A DNA stretch of 64,000 nt from Escherichia phage 348Ecol098PP, in sequence record OR062947.1, one strand, 5' to 3'. The notes under the pieces were generated by a model. It had not been told where the DNA came from. It did no database searches and saw nothing but the letters and a program-made list of their open reading frames with translations. Numbering within the stretch: the first letter of the stretch is position 1; every line of letters begins with the position of its first letter. Below are positions 33,364-64,000 of the stretch, one piece after another. Position numbers and translations under genes: made by a program.

Positions 33364-33561
33364 ATGACTACTGCAATTTGCACTGGTTCTAAAATTAGTG
33401 TTTTTACAAGTTTTGAAGATTATGAAGTTGTTTCAAAACACCAATGTCATATTAGCGTAAAAGCTAATGATGGTGTAATTTGGAATATTCCACAGTATGA
33501 AGGCACCACATATGAAGTCACAAATATAAATGGTGACAAAGCAATCTTTGTAATTGATTAA
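33364..33561 (+). CDS. hypothetical protein
   Basis: ORF track. Confidence 0.55.
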   Translation: MTTAICTGSKISVFTSFEDYEVVSKHQCHISVKANDGVIWNIPQYEGTTYEVTNINGDKAIFVID

Positions 33562-58969: not shown

Positions 58970-59629
58970 TTATTTAGCCCTTCCTAGTATTCGGACCGCT
59001 TGGTTGCATATAGCCGCTAAGCGATCTTCCTCAAGTATATTATTCCCCTTATACCAATACATCGTCACAGTTCCAGCATAGATGTTATCCAAATTAAAGT
59101 ATGGACAACTATACATATAAGAAAGTTCGGCAGTTTTAGATTTTGTAGGCAAAAATGCAAATTCTGATTTAGACGAGAAATGACGGCCACTTAAATGAAT
59201 TATATATTCATTGGCCGTTTTATCCACCGGGAACCCCCCAAGGGACTTTTCAGAAATTGTGCTAGGCAGTTTGCCTTCATAAGCTATAAGGTCGACGAAA
59301 TAATTTAAGTTTTTAGGTCTGAAAGAATACACAGCACTAAAATCTGCACCAGATGAGATATGAACTATTTGCAGTTGTTCTAGAGCCGCAGATTCAAAAC
59401 GTAAAGCTCGTTCTTTTTGGATTATTTCAGTATAAGTATCATACTTAGATCTTACATAATAATCCAGCAAAATACTTCCTTTGTACCATATTAGTGCCAT
59501 TAGGAACAAAAGAATAATTACCGCTACTCGGGACATTAAAACCTTTCCAGTAGCGTTATCTTTGAAAATACGATCTAGCAACCCAAATAGAATATCACTA
59601 GGCGAAAATGACACTTTTGGTGTTGCCAT
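58970..59629 (-). CDS. t: holin T
   Basis: 219 aa; SFSPSDILFG.LDR.FKDNATGKVL.SRVAV..LLF.MA..WY... matches T4 holin. Confidence 0.92.
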   Translation of the reverse strand: MATPKVSFSPSDILFGLLDRIFKDNATGKVLMSRVAVIILLFLMALIWYKGSILLDYYVRSKYDTYTEIIQKERALRFESAALEQLQIVHISSGADFSAVYSFRPKNLNYFVDLIAYEGKLPSTISEKSLGGFPVDKTANEYIIHLSGRHFSSKSEFAFLPTKSKTAELSYMYSCPYFNLDNIYAGTVTMYWYKGNNILEEDRLAAICNQAVRILGRAK

Positions 59630-59638
59630 AATACCTCC

Positions 59639-60190
59639 TTACTTAAAGATATTTATAATTCGTTTAACAAGTGATTTGCTTTCAAGGTCAGGGAATTTAG
59701 GGAATTCGCCGCCAAGATGTTCATGTTTTTCTAAAAGGGCAAAGAATTTTTTGAGCTCTTTAAATTTTCGTTTTTCTTCTCTATTAGCAACCTCTGCATC
59801 AATAAGAGAACTTAAAACGCTGAATAATTTATAGAGTTCATGAATTTTCTTATCACGTTGAACTACGCGTTTATATGCTTCATCTTCCTTCCACCCGTCG
59901 TCGGTCCAAATGTCAAATTCGCCAGGTTCTTCTGTAGTAACATTTTGAAGAGCACCTGGAGTGTCAATAACAATTTTTTGCTTATCATAAGTCCATACTG
60001 TTTTTCCACGATGGTCTTCAACGTATACCCATTCTTGTTCGCGTTCATCAAATACAACAGCATAGCCTTCTTTAGGGTCTAAAGGTTTTTTTGGTGTCGA
60101 ATGAGCCGGAAATCCTACGCCTTTTAATGGTTTATAATTTTCTTCTTTGTAAAATTCTTTTGTATCGAAATAAAAGTGATAAATTTTCAT
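59639..60190 (-). CDS. 38: tail-fibre assembly/adhesin protein gp38 (T4 type, 183 aa)
   Basis: MKIYH.YFDTKEFYKEENYKP.KG.G.PAHST.KKPL.PKEGYAVVFDER...FALLEKHEHLGGEFP matches T4 gp38. Confidence 0.85.
   Translation of the reverse strand: MKIYHFYFDTKEFYKEENYKPLKGVGFPAHSTPKKPLDPKEGYAVVFDEREQEWVYVEDHRGKTVWTYDKQKIVIDTPGALQNVTTEEPGEFDIWTDDGWKEDEAYKRVVQRDKKIHELYKLFSVLSSLIDAEVANREEKRKFKELKKFFALLEKHEHLGGEFPKFPDLESKSLVKRIINIFK
59650..59657 (-). promoter_or_regulatory. late promoter TATAAATA (minus strand) upstream of holin t
   Basis: TATTTATA on + strand = TATAAATA on minus, 21 nt upstream of t start. Confidence 0.55.
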
Positions 60191-60217: not shown

Positions 60218-63200
60218 TTATGCTAAACGAACGATATAGTTAAAAGCAATGTTTTTAACTGTGTTTTCTGTATTACCTGTACTATTTACAGTGATAGTAT
60301 GACCGTGCGAACCAATTGCTACCGAGTGGGTATGAGCACCAATACCTACAGTATGTGTATGGGCACCAATACCTACAGTATGCGCGTGGTTACCTGTGGT
60401 ATTTGTAGTTCCAGACCAAGAGTGCGTATGGTTACCTTCTGTCGATGACTTTGCAATATATTGGCCTATACCAGGCACGATTTTGTCGCTCGTGGCAAAA
60501 GAAAGAACCTGGGTTCCGCTAATTGCAGTAGCTCCATTAGGATATATTCCTGTTGGTTGATTATTAGGACCCCTTGGACCGGTCTGTGAGTGTTGGTGGT
60601 TCCCTGCTGCGCCAGTAGTACCACTAACGCTATGGTTATGGTTACCTGTTGTGTTGCTGGTTTTAGTACCATAATCGAATGATGAGGTGGTTTTAGTACC
60701 ATAATCGAATGATGAGGTGGTTTTAGTACCCAAATCTGTGCTTGATGCACTTGCACTATGGCTATGAGACTTAATACCATCAGCTTCTGTACTTAATACA
60801 GCACGCCCGGATGGTTTACCCTTGATAGTTTGACCACGCATATCAGGCAGAGCGCCGGAAGGATACACCGCAGCTAACTTAGGATACAAGTCAGTATCAA
60901 ACGTCTGGCCTTCCATGATGGCATAACCTTCAGGAGGTGTATCAGTAGGCCAAGGAATCGGAGCACCAATTGGGTAACTCGAGACAATATCCGTCTTAAG
61001 GTTATTTATTGTGGTATTCAAGTTAGCAAAATTACCAGTGCCGCCAGTGATGTTACCATCAGTACCGAATTGAGCATTACCAACTTTTAATGGTTTTGAA
61101 AAAAGAACATCGTCGGTTCTAAATGCAACCCCATGACCTAATGCATTATTATATAAGTTAAGTTCATCTGAACTACCACTCCCATTACCAACGTACCATT
61201 TAACCGTATTAGCTTTTTTACCCTGAATATAAACAGCGTTGGTCAATGAAGCCGAGTTAATAATAAGCGCGGCGTTATTAGCGTTAATTGTGATAGCTTG
61301 CCCTGATGTTGTTCCACTAGTTTCTACTTTAAATCTTCCACCACCGATATCAACATCATGATCCATGGAAACTTTACCAGTACTTAATGTAATATAGAAC
61401 GGACGTAAATTAGAAATACCACCTGATTCACCAGCATTCTGCGGGGTTGGAATAATATAAAGCTTATCTTCAGAACGACGGAAAATAGCACCGTATTCGG
61501 CATTCCAAATTCTTAATGCATCAGCAGTTCCGCCAATTTTAACTTGTCCAGTAATAGAAGAACCACCTTGGACAAACAAACCATTAGACATGGTAACATT
61601 ACCACCAAAAGAACCTGTACCAGAGGCACTTATATTTCCGAGCCCGACAATATGTCCAGTTTCTACAGTACCATTAAATTTAAAGTTAACCGGACCTACT
61701 GTTTGACCTGATGCAGGAGCAGTGCGTTGTGCATAAAAATAATATCCATGCCCGTCAGCTAATTCAAAAACTGTTTCACGAGTACGAGCGCCAGATGCGT
61801 TAAATGAATTACCCCACGCTTTAATAGATACATAACTTTTATTCTGACCTGCACGAGTACCACCAGCCCACAGTATAGTTTTAGTACCATCTACTGCTGT
61901 AGGAGCGTCAAGTTGAATACCATCGGGTCTAGCGCCAGTAAGAACTAATCCGTTATCAAATTTAATTCTTTGTATTGAAGATACTGTTCCGTCCGCTCTA
62001 ATAGCAACGCTATTGGAACCGGTTTTAATATCTAAAATTCCTGGGTCAACAATAAGCCCTTCGGCCATACTAACGGACATACGACCTGTACCACGGAAAT
62101 AGTGATACATTTTAGAATTACTGTTATAACCGATATGAGTTTGTCCATCACCGTTATTATTTCCATCAACATCAGTACGCGCAGTAAACATTGCTTGGTT
62201 GTTATTTGGGTAATCCCAAGTAGTACCAGAATTGCGGCTATAACCGACCATCAATTTCTTAGTGCTGTTAATACCGTTATTCAAAATGGTAGCGGATGAA
62301 ATACCGTTAGCCATGAAATCAATAACACCGTCGCGGACCCATTTAATACCTGTATCGTTATCACCAATGGCAATACCAATAGAAATAGCTGAATCCAAAG
62401 GATAACGTCCATTTGTACCATTATCAGGAAGACCTACTGAAATAGATTTACCTGCAGTAATACGCCCACTAGTATCAAACGCCCATTGGAAAGATTCCGG
62501 ACCTATACCAGTCCACCAAGAAATTTCTTGTGGCTTTCCTGAACGACAATCAGCTATTTCATGGAAAATACTAGAAGTATTCGAAGCCCGCATCTTACGG
62601 AGGTAGTTAAGACCATTTGTATTACGGTCAGAGCCATCTGCCGGTGGATTATAAATCCACATAGGTAAAGAAACCCAATCGTATCCAATGTTAGCATTAG
62701 CTACAAATGTTTTTGTACTAAAATTAATATTTTTAGTAACAATTTCAGGACCGGTGATAATACCATTAGCAGAGTTTATATTGCCTGAAGCAGAAATATT
62801 ACCGGTACGAACTTCAATACTACCAGAATCTACGATGAAATTACCATTTCGATTAAAAGTCCAATATTTCGAATCACCAGCTTCATTAATATAGTGAAAT
62901 TTAAAACTACCTTCGTTTACTAATGTACCAGCAGAAAAAGTACCGTCTTTATAACGCTGCTTAATCAGAGGATGGTATTCTGATACTGAGGTAGCAGAGC
63001 TCAAATCCGTAAAGATAGGAGCTTTATTTAGGTGTTGATTTGCCCACGCGCCATTTCCAGCAGTTTTTGGCAAGAATTCAATATACTTTCCTGCATAAAC
63101 AAACTGGTTTCCATTAAGATTATATGTACCGTTTTGTAAATAATCACCATTTTGAGTTACATTACCGTTAATATCCCCGCCCTTAGCAAAGCCTAGGCTA

Positions 63201-63343
63201 ATAATATTACCGAGGTCATCTTTAGTAAAAAGAGTTCGATCTTTTAAGTTTATCGCTAATTCGCCTTCGGCTAATTGTGCTGCAGTAGGATTAACTCCTG
63301 CCACTTTGCTTCTTTTAAATTGTATCTGTTTTAATGTAGCCAT
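60218..63343 (-). CDS. 37: long tail fibre distal subunit gp37 (receptor-binding), 1041 aa
   Basis: N-terminal [39 protein letters not shown]; C-terminal His-x-His repeats; synteny 36-37-38-t. Confidence 0.9.
60336..60389. repeat. 27-bp tandem repeat x2 inside gene 37, encoding HTHTVGIGA His-box repeats
   Basis: GCACCAATACCTACAGTATG repeated at 60336 and 60363. Confidence 0.8.
60661..60730. repeat. 30-bp tandem repeat x2.3 inside gene 37, encoding [10 protein letters not shown] repeats
   Basis: TTTTAGTACCATAATCGAATGATGAGGTGG at 60661 and 60691, partial third copy. Confidence 0.85.
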
Positions 63344-63351
63344 AAGTCCTC

Positions 63352-64000
63352 TTAATAATAGCCGAAATCTTGAACAGAATCCTTAATTACGATTTGGTCG
63401 AAACGAGGAACATGATTAGCCTCAGACGCCGGATTCTGTGAGAAAAAGTTTGGTGCTGTTAAAGTACCAGTCATGGTATCGCCAGAACGCAATACACGGG
63501 AATTTGCGTTATCCGTAACAATATTTATTCGTCCATCAACATAATCTTTTCTTGTGAGATCATTTGCTGCAACTGGAGCAGTCATATCGCTTCTTACTTG
63601 TCCTGAAGCAGATACAACGCCTTTTGTATTAATATCACCATTACGTGTATTGATTACTACAGTTCTACCCGCTGTTCCTTGTGATGATTTAAAACCAATA
63701 CCATACCATGAAACAATATCAATATTTGCTGTAACAAAAGTAGCTGCATCACCGTTACCAGGAAAAATACCGCTTTGGTTTGTATTGTTTATAGCATATG
63801 GTATTTGCACGCCACTGTTAAATGTTACCTTTGAAGCGTAAGTACCACCATTAGCTTTAGAAACGAAATCATTATCAGCAGCTTGCGGTTTATTATATTC
63901 TGAATAGAGTTTAAACGTTTTATACAGGACGTCATCACCTGCTGGCATTAAAGGGAAATTACCTTGATGCCATATAACAGCACCGCCAGTTGTACTACCA
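63352..64000 (-). CDS. 36: tail fibre hinge protein gp36 (5' end beyond window)
   Basis: [40 protein letters not shown] ... [17 protein letters not shown] matches T4 gp36; true N-terminus lies upstream of first in-window Met. Confidence 0.85.

Follow-up and report, generated by a model that had tools for sequence, protein, structure and literature searches.

Does a perfect tandem repeat near the 3' end of a phage tail-fibre gene serve as a switch for host range, or is it a conserved part of the architecture of the fibre? The question is raised by gene 37 of Escherichia phage 348Ecol098PP, which encodes the long tail fibre distal subunit (gp37, 1041 residues; 60218..63343, minus strand). The gene was analysed within a stretch of 64,000 nucleotides from sequence record OR062947.1, referred to here as the window, and all positions are those of the window. 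A sequence-only reading of this DNA had singled out an in-frame 30-bp tandem repeat in gene 37 as a candidate for slippage-driven length variation affecting host range. The analysis presented here favours a different answer. With a probability of roughly 0.7, the repeat makes up structural rungs of the needle stem and its units have recently evolved in concert, and a change confined to one arm of the stem should be selected against. By analogy with phage T4, the stem would be a trimeric, iron-binding shaft that bears the receptor-binding tip. It is proposed to form a ladder in which each rung combines one 10-residue unit of the outgoing arm with one 9-residue unit of the returning arm (HxHxVxIGx), where the HxH (histidine-x-histidine) motif of each returning unit would form one metal site.

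A perfect 30-bp repeat in gene 37

Tandem Repeats Finder placed the array at 60658..60730 on the minus strand, with a period of 30, 2.4 copies, 100% matches and a score of 146. The unit, TTTTAGTACCATAATCGAATGATGAGGTGG, occurs exactly at 60661 and at 60691, and period matching showed that the period-30 identity is unbroken over 43 nt, which corresponds to a perfect repeat of 73 bp or 2.43 copies. The repeat is in frame and spans codons 872-895, from G872 to T895. The same 10-residue FDYGTK-type unit is encoded twice, with the FDYGTK sequence at aa 879 and aa 889. Both the perfect in-frame repeat and the repeated 10-residue peptide described by the sequence-only reading are therefore confirmed; of the span it had given, 60661-60730, the upper end holds, while the lower end falls 3 nt short of the boundary found here.

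This array is the strongest tandem repeat in the window. Only three arrays reached a score of at least 50, two of them within the same segment of gene 37. When the sequence was shuffled 20 times, the longest period-matched runs measured 8-14 nt, compared with 43 nt in the real sequence. Assuming independent draws from the codon usage of gene 37, the chance that both units receive identical codons for the same peptide is about 1.3e-4. The third array scoring at least 50 is located at 33490-33521, with a period of 15, 2.1 copies and 88% matches with indels.

Position of the units in the needle

In T4 gp37, the collar comprises residues 811-881 and 1010-1026, the stem residues 882-931 and 960-1009, and the tip residues 932-959, within which the receptor-contact residues have been mapped (PMC6957217). 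These borders were carried over to the window through an alignment with PDB entry 2XGF, so the locations given below are locations by homology. The T4 fragment in this entry (T4 785-1026) matches aa 763-1041 of the window gp37 over chain positions 2-242, with E=7.6e-88 in phmmer.

All the segments assigned in this way lie on the minus strand. The first part of the collar (D10) covers aa 788-858 (60770..60982), by homology to T4 811-881 and by the Pfam Collar domain. It is followed by the outgoing arm of the stem, aa 859-918 (60 residues, 60590..60769), which corresponds to T4 882-931 (50 residues) and carries HxH motifs at aa 860, 902 and 916. Segmentation against T4, PhiZZ23, teqskov and the homologues P0194 and P0178 divides part of this arm into three consecutive 10-residue units, namely a degenerate first unit at aa 865-874 and two further units at aa 875-884 and 885-894 (60662..60751). 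Their consensus is xxSx[F/T]D[Y/L]G[T/S]K, and the first FDYGTK unit, aa 875-884, aligns to T4 898-907. The tip, the receptor-binding subdomain by homology, covers aa 919-965 (47 residues, 60449..60589) in place of T4 932-959 (28 residues), and belongs to a family characterised by HQHSQTGPR...KSSxEGN (here KSSTEGN). The returning arm then extends over aa 966-1024 (59 residues, 60272..60448), corresponding to T4 960-1009 (50 residues), with HxH motifs at aa 972, 986, 995, 1004 and 1013. Translation and segmentation show three 9-residue units in this arm, HAHTVGIGA, HTHTVGIGA and HTHSVAIGS, followed by HGH (60299..60388), with the consensus HxHxVxIGx. At the DNA level, Tandem Repeats Finder also detected an in-frame repeat here, at 60311..60382, with a period of 27, 2.7 copies and 84% matches, which was absent from the sequence-only reading.

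The two arms are of matching length, 60 and 59 residues in the window compared with 50 and 50 in T4, and the HxH ladder measures 42 residues on the way out and 14+9+9+9=41 on the way back. Exactly two length differences separate the stem from that of T4: 10 additional residues in the outgoing arm, which make up an extra 10-residue unit, and 9 additional residues in the returning arm, an extra HTVGIGAHT with its HxH. The window gp37 thus contains eight HxH motifs and T4 gp37 seven. The stem of 348Ecol098PP is accordingly predicted to be one rung longer than that of T4, with eight HxH sites rather than seven. The peptide of the 73-bp repeat contains no HxH of its own and sits between the motifs at aa 860 and aa 902.

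Judged by homology, the repeat units belong to the outgoing arm of the needle stem, 25-44 residues ahead of the tip and outside the region that corresponds to the T4 receptor contacts. The position near the receptor-binding tip proposed earlier is thus correct along the sequence, as the units lie 147-170 residues from the C-terminus, but by homology to T4 they fall in the stem and not in the tip. An AlphaFold2 model of aa 763-1041, computed from a 38-sequence alignment, had a mean predicted local distance difference test score of 52.5 and a predicted template modelling score of 0.23 and left the stem unstructured, an obligate intertwined trimer having been modelled as a monomer.

Paired unit numbers on the two arms

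Distances between successive HxH motifs were recorded in homologous C-terminal domains, in which the length of the first gap reads out the number of outgoing units; N denotes the number of outgoing 10-residue units including the degenerate first one. The samples comprised 120 sequences listed of about 2,500 database homologues, mostly enterobacterial prophage fibres, 80 IMG/VR loci, and 150 diverse sequences listed of about 1,900 that were retrieved when 1.84 billion representatives of 50%-identity clusters were scanned.

Among the 120 listed database homologues, a first gap of 32 (one FDYGTK unit) was always accompanied by two 9-residue gaps, and a gap of 42 (two FDYGTK units) by three. The same pairing was observed in the 80 IMG/VR loci, so that the pooled data contain 100 and 95 sequences of the two kinds and no discordant case. 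Longer classes appeared among the 150 listed representatives, in which a gap of 52 occurs with four 9-residue gaps, 62 with five and 73 with six. A second subfamily, with a different collar, emerged when viral, genome and metagenome contigs were searched for three FDYG units in a row, and here a gap of 44 is paired with three and a gap of 54 with four. After de-duplication, the numbers of outgoing and returning units were equal throughout the 207 unique parsed domains, for N=2-6, with no true exception. Explicit segmentation gave the same picture (outgoing/returning): 2/2 in T4 and PhiZZ23, 3/3 in 348Ecol098PP, 4/4 in P0194 and 5/5 in P0178.

The parser had flagged nine apparent exceptions (P0120, P0132, P0185, P0187, P0216, P0218, P0248, L087 and L099), all of which conform on inspection, owing to an extra or lost HxH or to a unit-like match within the tip. 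Two further sequences, P0221 and P0206, are frameshifted fragments. A second coupled pair was found beside the tip, where either both arms or neither show a 14-residue His-box spacing (135 and 60 sequences, respectively; one has 16).

Inheritance in two clades could be imagined as a sufficient explanation for such a pairing. On neighbour-joining trees, however, the unit state changed about 10 times each for the collar and the C-terminal segment and 3 times for the tip, and the tip family of the window sits on stems of two rungs in prophages and of three rungs in Mosigvirus phages. Since the unit state has changed many times, and since short and long stems can carry the same tip family, the coupling does not reflect simple shared ancestry. 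Mere descent in two clades is further ruled out by the classes with N=4-6 and by the second subfamily. Across these sequences, unit number varies in evolution from N=2 to N=6, and does so only jointly with the partner repeat. We infer that the pattern reflects a structural constraint, in which the arms of an interdigitated trimeric needle would be kept in register.

The metal-site motifs themselves vary at constant unit count. In L099, a Mixta mediterraneensis prophage, HTY replaces one returning HxH, while an additional HxH is found within the outgoing arm of P0216 and P0248, and the distal outgoing one is missing from P0218. Rung number thus does not strictly fix how many iron sites there are. 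Phage fibres are known, in qualitative terms, to differ in how many HxH motifs they have (PMC11705849, PMC11990801). Neither the FDYGTK unit nor its one-to-one pairing with the 9-residue units was found described in the searchable literature, although the pairing may already be stated in the original paper on the 2XGF structure.

Copy number and identity of the units

Two FDYGTK units represent the majority state among T-even phages with a T4-type gp37. They are present in JM10, mar005P1, ST0, phiD1, O157 typing phage 3, teqskov, AV116, LF82-41, S143_2, 172859UKE1 and JM17, and T4 and PhiZZ23 have one. The comparison with related phages that the sequence-only reading had proposed thus gave the same unit number in 11 of the 11 other sampled T-even alleles of the three-rung stem class, and most of the matches among 280 phage records align without a change in length. 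At the protein level the unit arrangement of 348Ecol098PP is an ordinary one, its singularity lying in the DNA.

In 39 two-unit loci, the first unit agrees with the second at 19-26 of 30 bases, and in 13 T-even phages at 22-27 of 30. Identity at all 30 positions, extended by 13 flanking bases, was found only in 348Ecol098PP when compared with about 50 relatives. The returning 27-bp units 1 and 2, by comparison, share 23 of 27 bases; they show no homogenisation, and JM17 has exactly the same ones. The idea that copy number was raised by a new duplication is rejected, as two outgoing FDYGTK units and three returning ones are already present in all the nearest relatives and the returning repeat is old. 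Since the copy number has not changed, the perfect identity is taken to reflect recent homogenisation: the sequence comparison indicates that the number of units was inherited and that the two outgoing DNA units were made identical later, and recently. Intragenic gene conversion or unequal exchange, that is, deletion followed by re-duplication, is the likely route.

The window units are also unusual relative to their orthologues. In comparison with the nearest relatives they show 16 differences in 60 positions, compared with 13 in 181 for the flanks (Fisher p=3e-4), and the closest of 146 units found elsewhere still differs at 5 of 30 positions. Serine and phenylalanine are encoded by TCA TCA TTC in the window units, where relatives use TCT AGT TTT or TCA AGC TTT. 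These differences suggest that the sequence spread over both units came from a more distant, unsampled allele.

The same observations could be accommodated if the identical units had been inherited ready-made, through a unit pair or stem segment imported by recombination from an unsampled allele, with no recent event in this phage itself. The divergence of the units from their orthologues (23-27%, compared with 7% for the flanks) and their codons would fit such an import, as would the C-terminal DNA of gp37, whose identity to phage records reaches 92% at most (best match of the gene 37 3' end in the phage collection, 92.3%). However, no donor was found among the 146 units compared, and the homogenisation event would still be needed, merely moved to another lineage. 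We consider this explanation unlikely and retain recent concerted evolution of the units, in which a short patch from an unsampled allele may still have taken part.

Proposed mechanism and consequences for host range

Under the concerted-evolution reading, the two-unit peptide would have been inherited and its DNA units recently equalised. The perfect 73-bp repeat is a plausible substrate for slippage and could slip or recombine, yielding variants that are longer or shorter by 30 bp. If matching arm lengths are required, as the constantly equal repeat numbers suggest, a change on one arm would shift the interdigitated needle out of register and be selected against. Such misregistration after a single-repeat slip is predicted because copy number is strictly coupled to that of the partner repeat.

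Several points weigh against this reading. A distance of only about 300-450 bp separates the two repeats, and linkage and module-wise recombination could account for part of the coupling. The register argument is drawn from sequence comparison. Each window unit differs by at least 5 bases from both orthologous units, which is more than simple conversion in situ predicts. Single-arm slip mutants of 348Ecol098PP might prove viable. Finally, Tetart et al. (1996) reportedly described duplications in the C-terminal region of T4 gp37 that can extend host range; length changes in this region are therefore not necessarily lethal.

These T4 duplications, reported in a study that PMC6957217 and PMC4281060 cite, also offer a precedent for the proposal that the repeat is a contingency locus, that is, a perfect repeat maintained so that frequent slippage alters unit number, fibre length or tip presentation, and hence host range. 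The frame-keeping perfection of the repeat (73 bp, 100%, period 30) is as expected for such a locus, and unit number does differ across the family (N=2-6). Two full copies nevertheless make a very short array, and differences in copy number among close relatives were absent from the 11 T-even alleles and from most of the 280 records. Perfection is likewise not preserved in relatives, where the units agree at 19-27 of 30 positions (about 50 relatives), and since these repeats have not been kept perfect, there is no sign of selection for mutability. In addition, unit number never changes without the partner repeat in the 207 unique domains, and the units are placed in the stem, away from the receptor-contact tip. 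Slippage-driven length variation affecting host range is thus not supported by the comparative data, in view of the constant copy number, the imperfect repeats of relatives, the strict coupling of the arms and the stem location, and we regard a contingency locus as very improbable. An assembly or polishing artefact that collapsed two diverged units into one sequence is scarcely credible: nothing specific favours it apart from the single genome record and a gp37 that is the sole member of its 90% cluster, whereas a sequencing read is longer than the 73 bp of the repeat, neighbouring 30-bp units inside one read are not made identical by assemblers, and frame, length and peptide are exactly as in relatives.

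If the repeat is a rung repeat under concerted evolution, a broader and more tentative picture can be drawn, which we regard as possible but doubtful. The T4-type stem might be a modular ladder of whole rungs, each holding one ion, gained and lost in matched pairs. The perfect repeat could then be a fresh footprint of rung turnover, the first half of a two-step gain or loss that tunes the reach of the tip through surface glycans.

Implications for fibre annotation and engineering

The repeat is best regarded as a conserved structural element and not as evidence for a host-range switch, and the determinants of receptor binding should be sought in the 47-residue tip. For the engineering and annotation of T4-type fibre tips, the pairing would serve as a design rule, according to which an outgoing 10-residue unit and a returning 9-residue HxH unit are to be changed together. 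It would also allow the metal sites of a fibre to be counted from sequence alone. More generally, the rule offers an instance, open to testing, of compensatory evolution by paired indels in an interdigitated trimer.

Genomic context and related fibres

The assignment of the repeat-bearing gene as the distal tail-fibre gene 37 was well founded. Its open reading frame translation is identical over all 1041 residues to WLY86683.1 of Escherichia phage 348Ecol098PP, and Pfam recognises a Collar domain (PF07484, aa 793-840, 44.5 bits, cut-off 24) and gp37_trimer, in addition to the 2XGF match. The neighbourhood agrees, with gp36 at 63352..63948 and holin t at 58970..59629 flanking the region. Immediately downstream of gene 37 lies gene 38 (59639..60190, minus strand, 183 residues), which encodes a T4-type tail-fibre assembly chaperone according to its translation, the Pfam domain Caudo_TAP and the annotation of its counterpart in S143_2 as a tail fibre assembly protein. 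A look-up of the exact gp37 protein in contigs retrieved no contig.

Outside the gene 37 region, Mosigvirus phages such as ST0, mar005P1 and G53 match the window at about 97.6% identity, and 348Ecol098PP (OR062947) has been classified as a Mosigvirus (PMC11510089). In the same study, the predicted receptor of the long fibre is OmpC, OmpF or maltoporin, and resistant mutants map to ompA and wbbD (PMC11510089). The receptor for this tip family is therefore unsettled, as the predicted porins stand against the ompA and wbbD resistance mutants.

Several observations were made on relatives in the course of the comparison. In teqskov (L094 609-671; MN895437.1 27429-27491), the depositors annotated a repeat_region inside the 3' end of gene 37. 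By its distance from the stop codon this feature probably overlaps the 27-bp HxH repeat, in which case at least one record already takes note of that repeat. The locus L087, a mutant T4 clone (T4_7t1, OL964745.1), has the tip sequence AISHRAGG where 2XGF has AISYRAGG, corresponding to Y953H. Y953 is among the T4 tip residues that have been mutated, and Y953A altered the phenotype (PMC6957217); the substitution in L087 is probably a host-range adaptation. In the prophage protein P0122 (938 residues), the first collar-needle breaks off inside the tip after ...SGTSQWV and is followed in frame by another shaft and a second complete collar-needle, and the protein appears to be a recombinant or fused tail fibre. 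Many collar-needle proteins of E. coli (for example P0049, P0054, P0058, P0061, P0064 and P0070) are named terminase large subunit, tail tape measure protein or short-chain fatty acid transporter, and some of them also carry the corresponding additional Pfam domains. Fused gene calls or misannotation within prophage regions are the likely cause.

Comparison with known systems

The closest characterised system is the T4 gp37 needle (PDB 2XGF), which consists of the collar D10 and the stem and tip of D11 and holds seven iron ions coordinated by HxH motifs. The window shares with it the collar, both stem arms and their HxH motifs, the last 29 residues and the adjoining gp38 chaperone. The 348Ecol098PP protein departs from T4 by one additional outgoing 10-residue unit and one additional returning HxH unit, which account for the eight motifs and the longer arms described above, and its tip is not only longer but unrelated.

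The three-rung gp37 proteins of S143_2, 172859UKE1, JM17, JM10, mar005P1, ST0, phiD1, teqskov and others share the same series of HxH gaps (42, 14, 55-56, 14, 9, 9, 9). These Mosigvirus and Tequatrovirus proteins have the same peptide units, at 76-92% DNA identity to the window. Their FDYGTK units have diverged at synonymous sites (22-27 of 30 bases shared), and only those of the window are identical. A wider set of relatives is formed by the fibre tips of enterobacterial prophages from E. coli, Shigella and others, which are lambda Stf-like or Mu-like and contain Collar and Phage_fiber repeats. They exhibit the same collar-stem-tip module at 55-80% identity, with the same unit types and equal unit numbers on the two arms, and some share the tip family of the window. 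They differ in their N-terminal shafts and phage types, and forms with one or two FDYGTK units (N=2 and N=3) are about equally common among them.

As to duplications in this gene, the 1996 J Mol Biol paper by Tetart, Repoila, Monod and Krisch is said to describe host-range duplications that take in the adhesin segment and have their end-points in GxHxH His boxes, and 'His box' recombination is reportedly treated in Tetart 1998. Like those duplications, the present repeat is a tandem duplication within the C-terminal adhesin region of gene 37. Unlike them, its 30-bp unit has no HxH, lies wholly in the outgoing arm, excludes the tip, and is conserved rather than a selected mutant. The repeat from G872 to T895 contains no HxH, and His-box end-points enclosing an adhesin segment, by which that family is said to be defined, were not found in it. 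According to a primer note, the hypervariable gene 37 region of Tetart et al. starts at the ASSTDLG codons (PMC4281060).

The Pfam family PF03335, 'Phage tail fibre repeat', describes a 14-residue GxHxH repeat, and the C-terminal 193 residues of gp37 match it with 26.5 bits (cut-off 20) in 6 stretches. This family models the His-containing repeat, and neither the 10-residue FDYGTK unit nor its pairing with 9-residue units. On the whole, the comparison identifies 348Ecol098PP gp37 as a member of the T4 gp37 needle family, in which all the defining features at the sequence level were observed and for which trimer formation and iron binding are predicted by analogy.

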